Program-made: the position numbers and the translations under genes
Origin: Acidobacteriota bacterium
Lineage (GTDB): Bacteria > Acidobacteriota > UBA890 > WLXD01
Reading direction: 5' to 3'
Assembly (NCBI GenBank): GCA_965205505.1
Contig: CBDBHB010000009.1
Coordinates: 1,568,001-1,632,000, forward strand
Length of the DNA: 64,000 nucleotides
The notes under the pieces: generated by a model
The model's input: only the letters and a program-made list of their open reading frames with translations
The model's database searches: none
What the model was told of the DNA's origin: nothing
Shown here: piece after piece, positions 27,825 to 32,702 of the stretch
Layout of the letters: every line of letters begins with the position of its first letter
Position numbering within the stretch: the first letter of the stretch is position 1

Positions 27825-28094
27825 ATGCGTCTCAGCCCCAGGTTCTTCTCGCGTCGTCTGACAGCCCGCGAGCGGCTCGTCTACGGAGCTGTGACCCTCT
27901 GGTTCCTGGTCGTGTCGGCGGCCCTGGTCTGGCCGCTGTACACACCTTTTGCTCGCCTGCGGCCGTTTGTCCTCGGCGTGCCGTTTGCGCTGGCCTTTCT
28001 TGCCGGAGTGCTGGTGGCCTCGTTCGTTGCCGGCGTGGCGTTGTACCGGTGGGAATCACGCCAGGGACTTCTCGACCGGGACGTCTCCGACTGA
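27825..28094 (+). CDS. Small membrane partner of SSS transporter (DUF3311-like)
   Basis: 2 TM helices, P.VLGVPF; stop overlaps the symporter ATG. Confidence 0.65.
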   Translation: MRLSPRFFSRRLTARERLVYGAVTLWFLVVSAALVWPLYTPFARLRPFVLGVPFALAFLAGVLVASFVAGVALYRWESRQGLLDRDVSD

Positions 28095-29560
28095 TGCCTG
28101 CCTGGATGGTGGTGTTCGGGGTGACCCTGGGATATCTGCTGGCGTCACTCATCGTGGGCCTGCTTTCCGGGCGACGGGCGAGCTCCGGACCCGAAGGGTA
28201 TATCGCCGGTGATCGGTCGCTCGGCTTCGTGCTGATGTACTTCATCATGGGTGCGTCGATCTTCTCGGCGTTCTCTTTTCTTGGTGGACCGGGTTGGGCG
28301 TACTCGCGCGGCGCTGCGGCCTTCTACATCCTGTCGTACGCCACGGTCGGACTGATTCCCTGGTATGCGTACGGGCCGCGCGTCGCCAGGCTCGGACGGC
28401 GGTTCGGCTACGTCACTCAGGCGGAGCTCTTCGCGCACCGGTTCGACAGCCGATGGTTGTCGGCCGCGCTGGCGATCATCAGCCTGGTGGCCTTCGTTCC
28501 TTACCTGGTGCTGCAAATGCAGGGGGCCGGCTACGTCTTCAACGTCGTCACCGAGGGACGGGTGCCGCATTGGCTGGGTGCAGCGATTGCCTACGGTGTG
28601 GTGTTGATCTACGTGCTCGCCAGCGGCGTGATGGGCGTCGGGTGGACCAACACGTTTCAGGGCGTCTTCATGATGGTGCTCGCCTGGGGTCTTGGGCTCT
28701 ATCTGCCTTATCGGCTCTATGGCGGCGTCGGGCCGATGTTCCAGGAGCTCGCCGCCGCCGTACCGGAGATGCTCGCGCCGCCCGGTCTGGATGGCGCCGG
28801 TAACCGCTGGAGTTGGGGTGGATACTCGAGCGCCGTAGCGGTGTCGGCGATTGGCTTCAGCCTGTGGCCGCATTACTTCATGAAGATCTACACGGCGAGC
28901 AGCGAGCGCGTACTCAAGAAGACGATCATCTTCTACCCGACCTTCCAGGTGTTCTTGATTCCAATCATCTTCATCGGTTTCTCGGGGATTCTCCGCTACC
29001 GTGATGTGGTTCCGGCCGATGCCATCCTGCCTACAATTCTGATGTCGCTGGATCTCCCCGCGTTCGCCGTGGGGCTGTTCTGTGCCGGTGCCCTGGCGGC
29101 TTCCATGTCGACGGGCGACGCGCTGCTGCACGCTGCGGGGTCGATCATGGTGCGCGACTTCGTGTGCGTGCTTTCACCGCGATCCCTCACCGAGCGGCAG
29201 CAGACACGGTTGATCCGCACGTTCGTGCTCATAATCTCGGCCTTCGCCTACTACTTCGCGGTCGTTTCCGAGCTCTCCCTGGTTGCTCTGTTGCTGCTCG
29301 CGTATGGCTTTCTAGTGCAGATCGCGCCGGTCCTCGTGGCAACGTTCTACTGGCCGCGCGCCACACCACAGGGCGTGCTCTCGGGACTGGTGGTCGGCTG
29401 TGGCGTGGTCATCCTCTTCTACTACGTGCCGGCCCTCCAGTGGCAGCAGGTCCAGCCTGGGATCTTCGGCCTGGCGGCCAACCTCGTCACCCTGGTGGCC
29501 GTGTCGCTGCTGACCGCGCCGATGGACGAGGCACACGTCGAGCAGTTCGTGGTGAGCTAG
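28094..29560 (+). CDS. Sodium:solute symporter family protein
   Basis: AGDRSLG, SAFSFLGGPG, ALAASMST; many TM helices. Confidence 0.9.
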   Translation: MPAWMVVFGVTLGYLLASLIVGLLSGRRASSGPEGYIAGDRSLGFVLMYFIMGASIFSAFSFLGGPGWAYSRGAAAFYILSYATVGLIPWYAYGPRVARLGRRFGYVTQAELFAHRFDSRWLSAALAIISLVAFVPYLVLQMQGAGYVFNVVTEGRVPHWLGAAIAYGVVLIYVLASGVMGVGWTNTFQGVFMMVLAWGLGLYLPYRLYGGVGPMFQELAAAVPEMLAPPGLDGAGNRWSWGGYSSAVAVSAIGFSLWPHYFMKIYTASSERVLKKTIIFYPTFQVFLIPIIFIGFSGILRYRDVVPADAILPTILMSLDLPAFAVGLFCAGALAASMSTGDALLHAAGSIMVRDFVCVLSPRSLTERQQTRLIRTFVLIISAFAYYFAVVSELSLVALLLLAYGFLVQIAPVLVATFYWPRATPQGVLSGLVVGCGVVILFYYVPALQWQQVQPGIFGLAANLVTLVAVSLLTAPMDEAHVEQFVVS

Positions 29561-29657
29561 ATGAGATGAGAAGGCCAACCTCCTGAACGCAGTAGCCTGA
29601 CGGCTCTGCAAACGTTTCTTCAAACGTAACGGGCTCGAAGCCCAAGGAGGTTGGCCG

Positions 29658-30699
29658 ATGAGGAGTGTAACGATTGGACTGGACGTAAGCGACCGGTACA
29701 GCCGTATGTGCGTGCTCGACAGTAAGGGCAGGGTGATGGAGGAAGGGCGGGTGAGGACGAGCCCGGAGGGGCTGGCGAGGCGGTTCGGGTGCGAGGAGCC
29801 CGCTCGAGTAGTGCTGGAGGTTGGAACGCACTCGCCGTGGATGAGTGAGCAGTTGAAGCAACTGGGTCATGAGGTGCTGGTGGCTAACCCGAGGCGGCTG
29901 AAGCTGATCTATGGCGAGCACGGACCGACCGGTTGGATGCCGAGCACCTGGCACGAGTGGGCAGAATGGACCCAAAGCTGCTTAAGACGGTGCAGCATCG
30001 AGGCAGACAAGCGCGAGCGGATCTAGCCGTGATTCGGAGCCGAGATGCTCTGGTAAAGAGCCCACGCAGTTGGTGAGCCATGTGCGTGGTGCGGTCAAGT
30101 CGGCCGGTTGTCGTATTCCCAGGTGCTCGACGCCGGCGTTCGCGCGCACCGCGCCAGAGCACATACCGGAGCGGCTCAAGGGAGCGCTCGAGCCGGTGCT
30201 TGAAACGATCGCCATGCTGACGGGCAACATCCAGCAATACGAGCGTCAGATCGTGCAGCTGTGCCAGGGGCGATACCCGGAGACACAGCAGCTCCAGCAA
30301 GTGGCCGGGGTCGGAGCTCTGACCGCACTGGCGTATGTGCTGACGCTCGAGGAGCCGGAACGGTTCAATACCTCCAGAGCCGTGGGCCCGTACCTGGGAC
30401 TGAGACCGAAGAAACGGCAGTCGGGGGACAAGGACCCTGCGCTACGAATAACCAAGGCGGGCGACAAAATGCTCCGACGCCTGTTGGTGGGCTCGGCGCA
30501 TTACATCCTGGGCCCCTTCGGGCCCGATACTGAGCTCAGACGCTGGGGGCTCAAGCTGGCCGGACGCGGTGGTCCTCATGGCAACAAAAAGGCAGCAGTT
30601 GCTGTCGCCCGTAAGCTCGCCGTTGTGCTGCACCGACTGTGGCTGAGTGGAGACGAGTACGAACCGTTGCGCGCACCTGTAGAGGTTTCAGCAGCATGA
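29658..30699 (+). pseudogene. IS110 DEDD transposase/recombinase with two frameshifts
   Basis: IGLDVS, VVLE, (shift) TDRLDA, (shift) GVGALTA, YLGLRP...SG, ITKAG, AVARKL. Confidence 0.85.
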
Positions 30700-30945
30700 A
30701 CTAACCCGCAACCAGGAGGTCGGTAGGGCGACGCGACCCAACGGTTATCGATCTGACCGCCCGGTCCGGGCGACTGCGAAGGTCACTACGAGCTTCGAGC
30801 TCGGCAGCTAGATTGCAGCGCCTCGAATCGGGACGGACCCCAGAATGCACCGGACGACCTGAATCCTCGTCCACCAGAGTGCGAATAGGAGCATGGCGTG
30901 CAGATCGATTCTTCGCTGGGCACCACATTGCCCTTGACCGAACTA
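30700..30945 (+). ncRNA. Putative IS1111-type bridge/seek RNA
   Basis: 30774-30818: stem / AGGTCACTA / hairpin / CAGCTAG / stem; the guides match the two strands of the insertion site. Confidence 0.65.
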
Positions 30946-30959
30946 GGCCTTCTCATAGA

Positions 30960-31234
30960 AGTGGCCTGTAGCAGATGATCGTTGCCTATCGCAGATGGGA
31001 TTTGCGGGTGAGATCAAGGCGCGGCGACGAAGTCGATGCTGGGACATCGTCCAGGAGCCGCAACGCCGAGATCGCCCGCAACTGCCCATCTGTCCGGAGG
31101 ATGGTGGCGAACTGGGCCCGTCTGCGGCGTTGCTCCTCCTCCACGATGGGCAAACATCGTCTCGTCGGAGCGCCTGACATCCGGGCCCATTTCGCCACCA
31201 CGATAGGCAACGATCATCTGCTACAGGCCACTAG
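30960..31234. mobile_element. MITE-like element with 32-bp perfect terminal inverted repeats
   Basis: AGTGGCCTGTAGCAGATGATCGTTGCCTATCG (30960-30991) is the exact reverse complement of 31201-31232; two internal hairpins; left end interrupted by the IS110. Confidence 0.85.
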
Positions 31235-31446
31235 GGTGGGCCGTTCTCGGATGGCGGGTTCGGGCGACGTTCCTTGCTGCGCGTTGCCAGCAGCATCGTC
31301 GTCAGGCCCAGCAAAAGCTCATCGGCGAACGGCAGCATGTCGGGCACCAGCAAGTCGAGCACGAACAGCCCCGCGGTGAGCGCAAACAGCCACGGGTAGC
31401 GCAGTTGCGAAAAATAGCGCAACAGAATGGCCGGCAGCGCACTCAT
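31231..31446 (-). CDS. DUF6116-like small membrane protein
   Basis: LRYPWLF...LFVLDLLVPDMLPFADELLL. Confidence 0.7.
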   Translation of the reverse strand: MSALPAILLRYFSQLRYPWLFALTAGLFVLDLLVPDMLPFADELLLGLTTMLLATRSKERRPNPPSENGPP

Positions 31447-32702
31447 GACGACGATGCGGCGGGCGTATTCGCGGCAGCTTCTTTCGTCAGCTCCGCTGCT
31501 TTCGGCGCCCATCCGAGCGCCAGTGCTTCGTTACCGTCCAGGGCGAGACGCAAGGCATCGATCTCGATGTGTTCGTTCACCGTGTGCGCCAGCAGTTCGT
31601 CGCCGGGTCCGAAGCCGATGCACGCCACGCCGGCTTGCGAGAAATGGCCGCCGTCGGTGGCGAAGCGCCATGTTCCGACCGAGTCGACGGGACCCAGCAC
31701 TCCCTCGAGTGTCTGGCGGGCGGCCCGCACCGCAGGATGATCCTCGCCGAGGACATATGCCGGGTGCTCACCCCCCAGGACCATCTCGACGCCGGTGTGC
31801 GCCACCTGTTGGTGTTGAGGGATCGTGACGTCGGCCGTGGTGCCCTCGATCAAGCAGTCGGCGACCAGATGTTCGAGCGTGGTGCGCGCCGACTCGGCAG
31901 TTTCATCGGGCAGCAGCCGCCAGTCGCAGGTGAGCCAGATCTCGGCGGGGATCACGTTGCTGCTGATCTGATCTGTACGGATCAACGTTGGTGCCACGGT
32001 GCTGCGGCCGAGATCTGGCTGTACGGCCATGTCCAGCGATCCGAGCCCGACGATGAAAGGGGCCAGCACCTCGAGGGGGTTGGCGCCCTCATGCGGCACG
32101 CTGGCGTGCGCCGAGCGGCCGGTGATATGAACGATGAGCTCGCAACGGCCGCGATGGCCTCGCCGCAGCGTATTACCGCTCGGCTCGCCGATTACTGCCA
32201 ACGGTGGCGTCAAGTAGGTGTTCAGGTGGCGTGCGCCGAGGCCTCCGACTTCCTCCTGTACGACCGCAGTCACCCAGACGTCGCCGGCCGGTGTCGTCCC
32301 CGACTCCGGCAGCCGCCCGACACCGTATACCTGCGCTGCCAGAGGGCCCTTGATGTCGACCGCGCCGCGCCCCCAGATCTTGTCGTCGTGGATCTCGGCG
32401 CCGAAAGGAGAATGCGGCCAGCGCTCTGCCTCTCCGACATCGACGTGATCCAGGTGCGTATTGAACATGACGGCCGGAGCGGCGCTCGATCCGGGCACGC
32501 GCCCAACGACGTTGCCGACGTCATCCAGCTCGACGTCGGCGTAGCCGAGGTCTCGCATTTCAGTTGCCACGAGCTCGGCGATAGCACCCTCCTCGCCAGG
32601 CAGGCTGGGGGTACGAATCAAACGCTGCGTGAAGTCGACACAGCGCTGCAGGTCCGAGCTCATGGCGAATTTCCAGGCGCCGCGTGCTGCGTCGATGCTC
32701 AC
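31443..32702 (-). CDS. M20/M25/M40 metallo-hydrolase (ArgE/DapE-like)
   Basis: HLDHV, GRGAVDIKG, QEE, IGEPS, HAS, TDG, AHTVNE. Confidence 0.88.
   Translation of the reverse strand: MSIDAARGAWKFAMSSDLQRCVDFTQRLIRTPSLPGEEGAIAELVATEMRDLGYADVELDDVGNVVGRVPGSSAAPAVMFNTHLDHVDVGEAERWPHSPFGAEIHDDKIWGRGAVDIKGPLAAQVYGVGRLPESGTTPAGDVWVTAVVQEEVGGLGARHLNTYLTPPLAVIGEPSGNTLRRGHRGRCELIVHITGRSAHASVPHEGANPLEVLAPFIVGLGSLDMAVQPDLGRSTVAPTLIRTDQISSNVIPAEIWLTCDWRLLPDETAESARTTLEHLVADCLIEGTTADVTIPQHQQVAHTGVEMVLGGEHPAYVLGEDHPAVRAARQTLEGVLGPVDSVGTWRFATDGGHFSQAGVACIGFGPGDELLAHTVNEHIEIDALRLALDGNEALALGWAPKAAELTKEAAANTPAASSS

Follow-up and report, generated by a model that had tools for sequence, protein, structure and literature searches.

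What selects the insertion site of a mobile element that is found, copy after copy, at the tip of another repeat? The question is raised by a 1401-bp insertion sequence (IS) at positions 29561–30961, plus strand, of a 64-kb stretch of an Acidobacteriota genome (contig CBDBHB010000009.1); this stretch is referred to below as the window, and plain coordinates are positions in it. The genome holding the window (G000) comprises 5.98 Mb in 9 contigs at 64% G+C. The element, a non-autonomous, frameshifted copy, is assigned to the IS1111 group of the IS110 family, and we consider it very probable that elements of this kind pick their insertion site via an RNA encoded in their own 3' non-coding end. 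The site and the orientation are fixed, the non-coding end is complementary to the site within a conserved fold, and in relatives both target guides and one donor guide covary with the corresponding DNA.

At the left junction (29560/29561) the sequence reads GAGCTAG/ATGAGATGAGAAGGCC, and at the right junction (30961/30962) GGCCTTCTCATAGAAG/TGGCCTGTAG, the slash marking the boundary of the element. An AG dinucleotide stands at both junctions (29559–29560 and 30960–30961), and nothing beyond it is common to the two; the initial annotation, whose coordinates and letters all proved correct on re-reading of the window, had already placed an AG core there. The left half of the target is CTAG (29557–29560), as defined by junction counts, and its AG is the core dinucleotide. 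A BLAST search of G000 returned 33 matches to the element, 27 of them full length and six fragments, with identities of 98.4–100% except for one 96-base fragment (94.8%), and of 98.5–100% among full-length copies. Every one of the 27 full copies is bordered by (C/T)TAG and TG(G/A)CCT: the left flank is CTAG in 26 (one of them after a register fix) and TTAG in one, and the right flank is TGGCCT in 26 and TGACCT in one. Four fragments are right ends, all before TGGCCTG, and two are left ends, both after CTAG, which brings the totals to 29/29 left junctions after (C/T)TAG (28 CTAG, 1 TTAG) and 31/31 right junctions before TG(G/A)CCT. The prediction that other copies would insert in CTAGTGRCCT holds for all 27 full copies, save for TTAG in one left flank.

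Left of CTAG the flanks are all different among copies, and right of TGGCCT 15 of the 27 copies run on as TGGCCTGTARCAG, five as TGGCCTGAGTCAG, and seven in six other ways. The target was proposed at the outset to be a multicopy host repeat, the end of a MITE (miniature inverted-repeat transposable element), and the genome-wide distribution of sites bears this out. Uninterrupted CTAGTGGCCT occurs at 109 sites in G000, as against 13.4 expected from base composition, and most of these free sites open a terminal inverted repeat of about 33 bp, CTAGTGGCCTGTAACAGATGATCGTTGCATATCG. This repeat bounds elements of 278 bp (the commonest form, with 46 near-full-length matches in G000), 356 bp, and 552 bp. 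The MITE in the window is of the 278-bp form and consists of CTAG (29557–29560) plus a body at 30962–31237, recognized as a genome repeat, in which TGGCCT (30962–30967) is the right half of the target and CTACAGGCCACTAG (31224–31237) the far end; read on the minus strand, that other end (31221–31237) is ACCCTAGTGGCCTGTAG.

Flanks that are identical at all copies over four bases on the left and six to seven on the right, with 20 of 27 right flanks continuing as one of two MITE types, could also mean that the constant flanks belong to the element, either because its boundaries were drawn too narrowly or because IS and MITE move as a composite, with no choice of target at all. We regard this explanation as scarcely credible, since the 109 uninterrupted sites carry no IS, at least eight different continuations follow TGGCCT(G) on the right while the left flanks all differ, and relatives of the element have its ends in common and not its flanks. 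The MITE moreover occurs apart from the IS in other species of the genus: it has 67–88 matches in each of three congeners, free target sites number 65–135 in congeners, and the IS protein turned up in none of the four same-genus genomes searched (92–96% complete; E ≤ 1e-30). Because congeners carry the MITE and free sites, and the IS protein was not found in them, the MITE is older than the IS. At the orthologous locus in one congener (G004, L142 2355–2430, corresponding to 29550–31240 in the window), the symporter gene is followed by a MITE remnant of about 70 bp without an IS, which retains both repeat tips, CTAGTGGCCGGTAACAG ... CTGTTACAGGACACTAG. The presence of the remnant at the same spot implies that the MITE insertion predates the split of the two species.

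Some further features of the MITE family were observed. At three places in G000 (C9:129739, C9:1325510, and C9:1339279) two target sites stand head to head with one CTAG in common, AGGCCACTAGTGGCCT, as if two MITE ends abutted or the site were a bare palindrome. Free sites favor CA just before CTAG, with C at −6 in 56/109 and A at −5 in 60/109, which may reflect the insertion preference of the MITE itself or abutting repeat ends. A search for an autonomous parent among pairs of repeat-tip-like sequences 0.7–4 kb apart, in which the open reading frames (ORFs) of two candidates were compared with Pfam, yielded no transposase; the ORF of one candidate encodes a DUF5916/CBM9 protein.

The segment that would read this target lies in the 3' non-coding end of the IS. 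Target guide 1, AGGUCACUA (30780–30788, plus strand), complements the top strand TAG+TGGCCT across the insertion point with one U.G wobble, confirming the match originally described, and is invariant in the 27 copies. It is the exact complement of TAG+TGACCT and complements the common TAG+TGGCCT only with the wobble; the exactly matching site, CTAGTGACCT, is rare in G000, with two free sites (7.5 expected) and one occupied site at C9:68585–69991. Target guide 2, AGCUAG (30806–30811, plus strand), has the sequence of the top strand to the left of the cut, which enables it to pair with the bottom strand. For this second guide the initial annotation stands in part: the six nucleotides AGCTAG match the flank of the window copy, and the C at 30805 that was originally included does not. 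The two guide matches overlap at TAG of the target, and the segment complementary to the top strand comes first. Both features have been described for IS1111 seekRNAs, in which the top-strand-complementary guide is first and the guides overlap in the target (PMC11187229).

The two guides are embedded in a predicted target-binding stem-loop of a putative bridge/seek RNA (30760–30832, plus strand). Its parts are CTGCGA (30774–30779), guide 1 (AGGTCACTA as DNA, 30780–30788), a hairpin (30789–30803), G (30804), CAGCTAG (30805–30811), A (30812), and TTGCAG (30813–30818), and its outer stem joins 30760–30779 with 30813–30832. The hairpin between the guides, CGAGCU-UCG-AGCUCG, appears in the minimum free energy fold and is supported by covariation (pairs 34–52 and 35–51 of alignment A3). 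Folding of 30760–30935 by energy minimization yields stem/loop/hairpin/loop/stem unaided, in agreement with the stem/guide/hairpin/guide/stem architecture first noticed in the 3' non-coding end. The region 30707–30825 is invariant in all 27 copies. When the non-coding end was shuffled 100000 times at constant mononucleotide composition, 791 shuffles contained a guide able to pair with TAGTGGCCT with no more than one wobble, and 40 contained such a guide together with GCTAG within 60 nt downstream, i.e., both guides.

If the non-coding end encodes the target, elements with other targets should carry other guides. A relative in a genome of the same order (G011) has 63–68% protein identity, the same ends, and a non-coding end 78% identical to that of the window element, and it is inserted at GAGTAG/AGTCCG. 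Its guides are CGGACTCTA, whose reverse complement TAGAGTCCG fits the site at 9/9 positions, and GAGTAG; compensatory changes distinguish the intervening hairpin from that of the window element. This is the only copy in that genome (G011:C1:3908161–3911885); its transposase gene is interrupted by an insert of about 2.7 kb, and its 10-base target occurs six times there.

We then aligned 42 homologs and scanned metagenome contigs, in which 592 stretches encode relatives; 80 loci at 50–71% identity were retained. The subterminal inverted repeats, of the ATGAGAAGGCC type, could both be placed in 58 of the 80, in the layout flank-AG / ATGRG-repeat ... repeat-RGA-AG / flank, and AG precedes the left end in all 58 listed relatives. 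With enough flank on both sides, 54 of these loci plus the window and G011 elements gave 56 sets, and anchors could be placed in 51 of the 56. The covariation test thus covered 51 loci (49 metagenomic relatives, the window, and G011) in 34 target classes; the relatives are non-independent, 11 of the 51 loci falling in one class. Within a constant frame, GRCGACTGCG - guide - hairpin - CG NN guide..AG - AT(T/G)GCAGC, the guides vary.

They vary with the flanking DNA. The left guide equals the flank at −3/−4/−5/−6/−7 in 33/29/29/32/21 of the 34 classes, with non-cognate pairs agreeing at a frequency of 0.24–0.28, and at −8 in 9/34 classes (non-cognate 0.24). Its mean score is 4.60/6 against cognate flanks versus 1.88 against non-cognate ones, and that of the right guide is 5.25/6 versus 3.66, in both cases over the 34 classes. 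The right guide complements the first six flank bases with a score of at least 5.5/6 in 21/34 classes, compared with 0.8% of non-cognate pairs, and none of 5000 permuted guide-flank pairings reached the observed sum. The fold is maintained at the same time. In an alignment of 22 sequences the covariation score is 0.192 versus 0.106 in shuffles, with 0/500 shuffles as high; one pair of the core stem is CG in nine sequences, UA in nine, UG in two, and AU in one. The core stem and the hairpin stay paired through double changes across these 22 sequences, and the outer stem is poorly aligned. Hence both target guides covary with the flanking DNA while the ends stay constant, which constitutes natural reprogramming. 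Covariation of guides with targets, named at the outset as a check on the proposal, is thus found both in the G011 relative and over the 34 target classes.

These data bear directly on the possibility that the protein recognizes the site, for instance via the subterminal repeats or by means of a DNA-binding domain, and that the RNA complementarity is incidental or only regulatory. The RNA of the window element is deduced from the sequence rather than demonstrated, and the conservation of subterminal repeats and end extensions across the subfamily suggests that the protein may well read the donor ends. As an account of target choice we nevertheless hold a protein code to be very improbable: proteins of 50–71% identity with the same ends serve 34 target classes, the loop segments change with the flanks, a protein-only code would leave no such signature in non-coding DNA, and chance is excluded by the permutations. 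In addition, the RNA is essential and reprogrammable in other IS1111 members (PMC11187229).

Eleven relatives from different samples (L065, L073, L075, L079, L082, L083, L084, L086, L091, L095, and L110) have a single target, TTCTCSGAAG/TTCGC, which is partly palindromic (CGAAG/TTCG) and may represent another multicopy repeat serving as a landing site. More distant loci, L031 (43% identity) and L034–L039 (31–48%), have no usable homology in the non-coding end.

If an RNA selects the target, part of the same RNA may hold the ends of the element itself. The segment AUAGGAG (30885–30891, plus strand), tentatively put forward in the initial annotation as a donor guide, equals the right-end tip ATAGAAG at all but one position, where a G.T wobble with the bottom strand is possible. 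It lies within a conserved frame, GTGCG-N-ATRGAAG, a motif recovered from 49 of the 51 loci. The donor 7-mer equals the right-end tip in 45 of these 49, with five tip variants matched (ATAGAAG, ATGGAAG, ATGGCAG, ATGGGAG, and ATAAGAG). The four exceptions are the window element and L064, in which a single G replaces the A of the tip and wobble pairing is still possible, L081, and L137. Covariation in relatives thus supports the assignment of AUAGGAG as a putative donor guide for the right-end tip.

A second donor segment is more tentative. At 30839–30843 (plus strand), where relatives carry a complement of the left-end extension, the window element has CCCAG. Over the relatives the agreement between this segment and the left-end extension is 0.75 for cognate and 0.59 for non-cognate pairs, and rare left-end extensions (L077, L137, L112, L117, and L087) fit it at 5–6 of 5–6 positions. 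The segment 5' of the next hairpin may therefore be a guide for the left end. That hairpin, GCAC...GUGC (30847–30882, plus strand), separates the two donor-side segments; it appears in the minimum free energy fold, and relatives keep a TGCACC / AGTGCG frame. The order is the same as on the target side, i.e., a top-strand-complementary segment, a hairpin, and a top-strand-identical segment. A multi-loop donor-binding part has been noted for many IS1111 members (PMC11208160).

The hexamer TTGACC (30934–30939, plus strand), kept as TTGAC(A) in the alignment of relatives, is situated about 7–10 nt upstream of the right subterminal repeat in nearly all of them, and could be the −35 box of a promoter that is completed at the circle junction. 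In ISEc11 a promoter is reportedly formed when the ends join. For the window element, TTGACC followed by an 18-nt spacer leads to GAAGAT, which agrees with the −10 consensus at 3/6 positions, and a promoter is not claimed.

The assignment to the IS110 family and IS1111 group is supported by the ends, the insertion pattern, and the protein. The left subterminal inverted repeat, ATGAGAAGGCC (29566–29576, plus strand), is exactly repeated in inverse orientation by the right one, GGCCTTCTCAT (30946–30956, plus strand). Both are 11 bp long and stand 5 bases from the element end: on the left the extension ATGAG (29561–29565, plus strand; ATGRG in most relatives) leads from the core to the repeat, and on the right the tip AGA with the core AG (30957–30961, plus strand) follows it, as in the relatives. 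IS1111 elements have subterminal inverted repeats of 7–17 bp with short terminal extensions (PMC11208160). The non-coding ends are 97 nt on the left (29561–29657) and 262 nt on the right (30700–30961), the longer one being 3' of the transposase gene (tnp), as in the IS1111 group. A single specific site, one orientation, and no target duplication beyond the shared core are features of the IS110 family, and the element displays them at its 29 left and 31 right junctions. On the other side of the left junction, a sodium:solute symporter gene occupies ORF 28049–29560 on the plus strand (PF00474, 115.9 bits); its stop codon TAG (29558–29560) survives the insertion, being contained in the CTAG on the left.

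The transposase gene (29658–30699, plus strand; PF01548, PF02371, NF033542) was described initially as frameshifted, and comparison with intact copies in G000 reveals two frameshifts, one caused by the absence of 4 bases following 29922 and the other by that of 1 base following 30062. As a result, the reading frame of the window copy is in two pieces, one with the DEDD_Tnp_IS110 domain (N-terminal) and the other with Transposase_20 (C-terminal); the first scores 26.6 bits with PF01548, under the cut-off of 29, because the gene is split. The intact protein of 348 amino acids scores 64.6 bits with PF01548 (cut-off 29), 62.3 bits with PF02371 (cut-off 21.3), and 205.5 bits with NCBIfam NF033542, "IS110 family RNA-guided transposase" (cut-off 140), and has weak sequence matches to the solved transposases of IS621 and ISCro4 (8wt6 and 9t56; E of 6e-8 and 6e-9). 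It contains GLRPKKRQSG, an instance of the motif GL-P----S(T)G, and its length is within 330–350 amino acids; both this motif and this length range are given for IS1111 transposases (PMC11187229).

Could the family be a fossil in G000, with a real site preference, immobile copies, and the window copy in decay? Seventeen of the 27 copies are broken, the window copy alone has both lesions (the 4-base gap is common to 12/27 copies and the 1-base gap to 5/27), and the circle junction was not seen in the assembled contigs searched. We nonetheless think this unlikely. Ten of the 27 copies have a full open frame of 367–369 codons that gives the 348-amino-acid protein, the full-length copies are nearly identical, an intact variant is present in RNA-library and other runs, and the failure to find the element in four target-bearing congeners points to recent expansion. 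Judging by the reading frames, intact enzyme should be available in the same cell from the ten intact copies; the window copy makes no enzyme of its own, hence its mobility would depend on enzyme supplied by one of them. We do not claim that defective copies are mobilized in trans on the grounds of the common 4-base deletion, which is accounted for equally well by gene conversion or by mixing during assembly. One further copy (G000:C8:891218–892373) is internally deleted, element positions 694–1055 being replaced by about 116 bases, and retains both ends and the RNA region. No solo RNA genes beyond truncated IS copies were found among the G000 matches.

Taken with the biochemistry of the family (PMC11187229, PMC11208160), these features suggest the following mechanism. 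The RNA would be made, probably from the tnp transcript, and bound by the DEDD recombinase, and would direct recombination of a circular intermediate. In its stem-closed loop, AGGUCACUA would pair with the top strand TAG-TGGCCT and AGCUAG with the bottom strand of AGCTAG. The two target matches overlap at the AG core, the presumed site of strand exchange, and the element is therefore inserted in one orientation, exactly between CTAG and TGGCCT. The AUAGGAG segment and, more weakly, the tentative complement of the left extension may hold the joined ends of the excised circle. A recombinase tetramer with its bound RNA would then keep the target and the joined ends together while strands are exchanged at the core. 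The 10-nt site is at the terminal-inverted-repeat tip of a MITE of 278 bp resident in the genome, and this explains how the element was able to attain about 30 copies. An RNA-guided recombinase programmed against a multicopy host repeat, as the initial annotation had it, is supported, and every part of that proposal held up.

Several observations weigh against this mechanism or narrow it. To the left of the insertion, the 27 copies have only CTAG in common and differ at target positions −5 and −6; two of the six left-guide positions are therefore not required. Guide-2-matching bases are more frequent at occupied than at free sites, with G at −5 in 11/27 versus 21/109 (Fisher p = 0.024) and A at −6 in 10/27 versus 12/109 (p = 0.0025); bearing on the left guide, this enrichment is a hint, because some flanks are duplicated and the sites are non-independent. 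Eleven variable sites, the 4-base and 1-base gaps included, are combined differently in every one of the 27 copies, a mosaic pointing to gene conversion among the copies or to their mixing in the assembly. Variants including the frameshifts are thus possibly shuffled, and copy-specific statements may blur. The second donor segment fits its left-end extension at only 3/5 positions in the window element. In the metagenomic set, the boundaries were placed by conserved subterminal repeats and not by empty sites, the other 22 of the 80 loci, on short contigs or without an exact seed, were dropped, and so were five of the 56 sets (L069, L080, L106, L139, and L140), which have the same layout by eye. 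Searches of 29000–31600 against Rfam 15 with E up to 10 gave chance-level unrelated hits and no bridge-RNA family, and the integrated element yielded no complete promoter of the sigma-70 type. Coverage comes only from assembled contigs of the RNA libraries of one study, which attest presence and not transcription, ends, or strand; they cover most of the element including the non-coding end, in an intact variant. No joint of the right end to the left end was seen in the contigs of RNA-library runs X1, X2, and X4 and of run X8, and its absence from assembled contigs speaks neither for nor against a circular form.

How does the element compare with known systems? Its core dinucleotide is AG, unlike the CT of IS621. 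Two IS1111-family elements, IS4321 and IS5075, reportedly hit 38-bp transposon inverted repeats in one orientation; their target is said to be a repeat of large resistance transposons on plasmids, as opposed to the chromosomal MITE here. Closest in design are the IS1111 seekRNA elements ISEc11, ISPa11, ISKpn4, and ISPst6 (Siddiquee et al., 2024; PMC11187229), which likewise have a DEDD transposase of 330–350 amino acids with the GL-P----SG motif, subterminal inverted repeats, a long non-coding region 3' of tnp, and natural re-direction between relatives. In contrast to them, the window element has a MITE tip as its target and different guide sequences, and its RNA is predicted from the sequence; the four are only distantly related to it, judged by none of them turning up in searches and not by sequence comparison. 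With IS621 and the other bridge RNAs of the IS110 group (Durrant et al., 2024; PMC11208160) it shares the protein family and a bispecific RNA whose target and donor loops center on a core dinucleotide, whereas its RNA is in the right end and not the left, the guide order is reversed, the subterminal repeats are long, and the donor-binding part is multi-loop-like.

Insertion into resident repeats has precedents as well. In Coxiella burnetii, 20 of 21 IS1111 copies lie inside the resident MITE QMITE2 (Wachter et al., 2018; PMC5896051). There, IS1111-type copies sit in a resident MITE as they do here, and the QMITE2 site is an internal GTAG palindrome, unlike the terminal-inverted-repeat tip with flanking CTAG described above. 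ISPpu9 of Pseudomonas putida, an IS110-family element in repetitive extragenic palindromic (REP) sequences, has a small RNA gene 3' of tnp (PMC12288879). It resembles the window element in this small RNA region and in its insertion into a multicopy host repeat, and differs in its REP target and in having extra solo copies of the RNA gene. In the literature, as far as our partial coverage of it extends, we found no case of a MITE repeat tip as an IS110/IS1111 target.

The mechanism itself has been published, in the 2024 reports of IS110/IS1111 bridge and seek RNAs; insertion of such elements into MITEs, REPs, and transposon ends is likewise in print, and the NCBI family model NF033542 already names the protein an RNA-guided transposase. 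What is added here is the MITE tip as a target, a guide with a wobble, a left guide whose effective length is short, and a large subfamily that has been reprogrammed while its ends stayed constant. Because the mechanism is settled, the value for the field is that of material rather than discovery. The locus provides a clean natural example: there are about 30 copies and 109 sites still free, and the element was not found in congeners possessing the target. The subfamily is large and mostly metagenomic; its ends do not change, and it offers no fewer than 34 guide pairs reprogrammed in nature. This collection reveals which positions of the guides count in natural elements, namely six on the right side along with the core and four to five on the left side, and that wobble pairing is tolerated. 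For annotation, it accounts for about 33 "IS110 family transposase" genes and pseudogenes in G000 and for the same repeat adjoining them.

As to the biology of the element, it is possible, though rather less than probable, that we are looking at a parasite of a parasite caught mid-expansion. If so, the guide would be exact for the rare TAG-TGACCT, yet a single U.G wobble would let it exploit the TAG-TGGCCT tip of a genus-wide MITE; in the cell, only four left-guide bases (CTAG) would be strictly needed; and copy number would track target supply, with about 33 copies in G000 compared to one broken copy in G011, where there are six targets. Each insertion would in addition separate CTAG from the tip of the repeat and thereby inactivate the MITE end concerned. 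The MITE inverted-repeat tip joins the list of repeats used as landing sites, and, if the above is true, wobble-tolerant, partly matched guides would let bridge-RNA elements jump onto new multicopy repeats.

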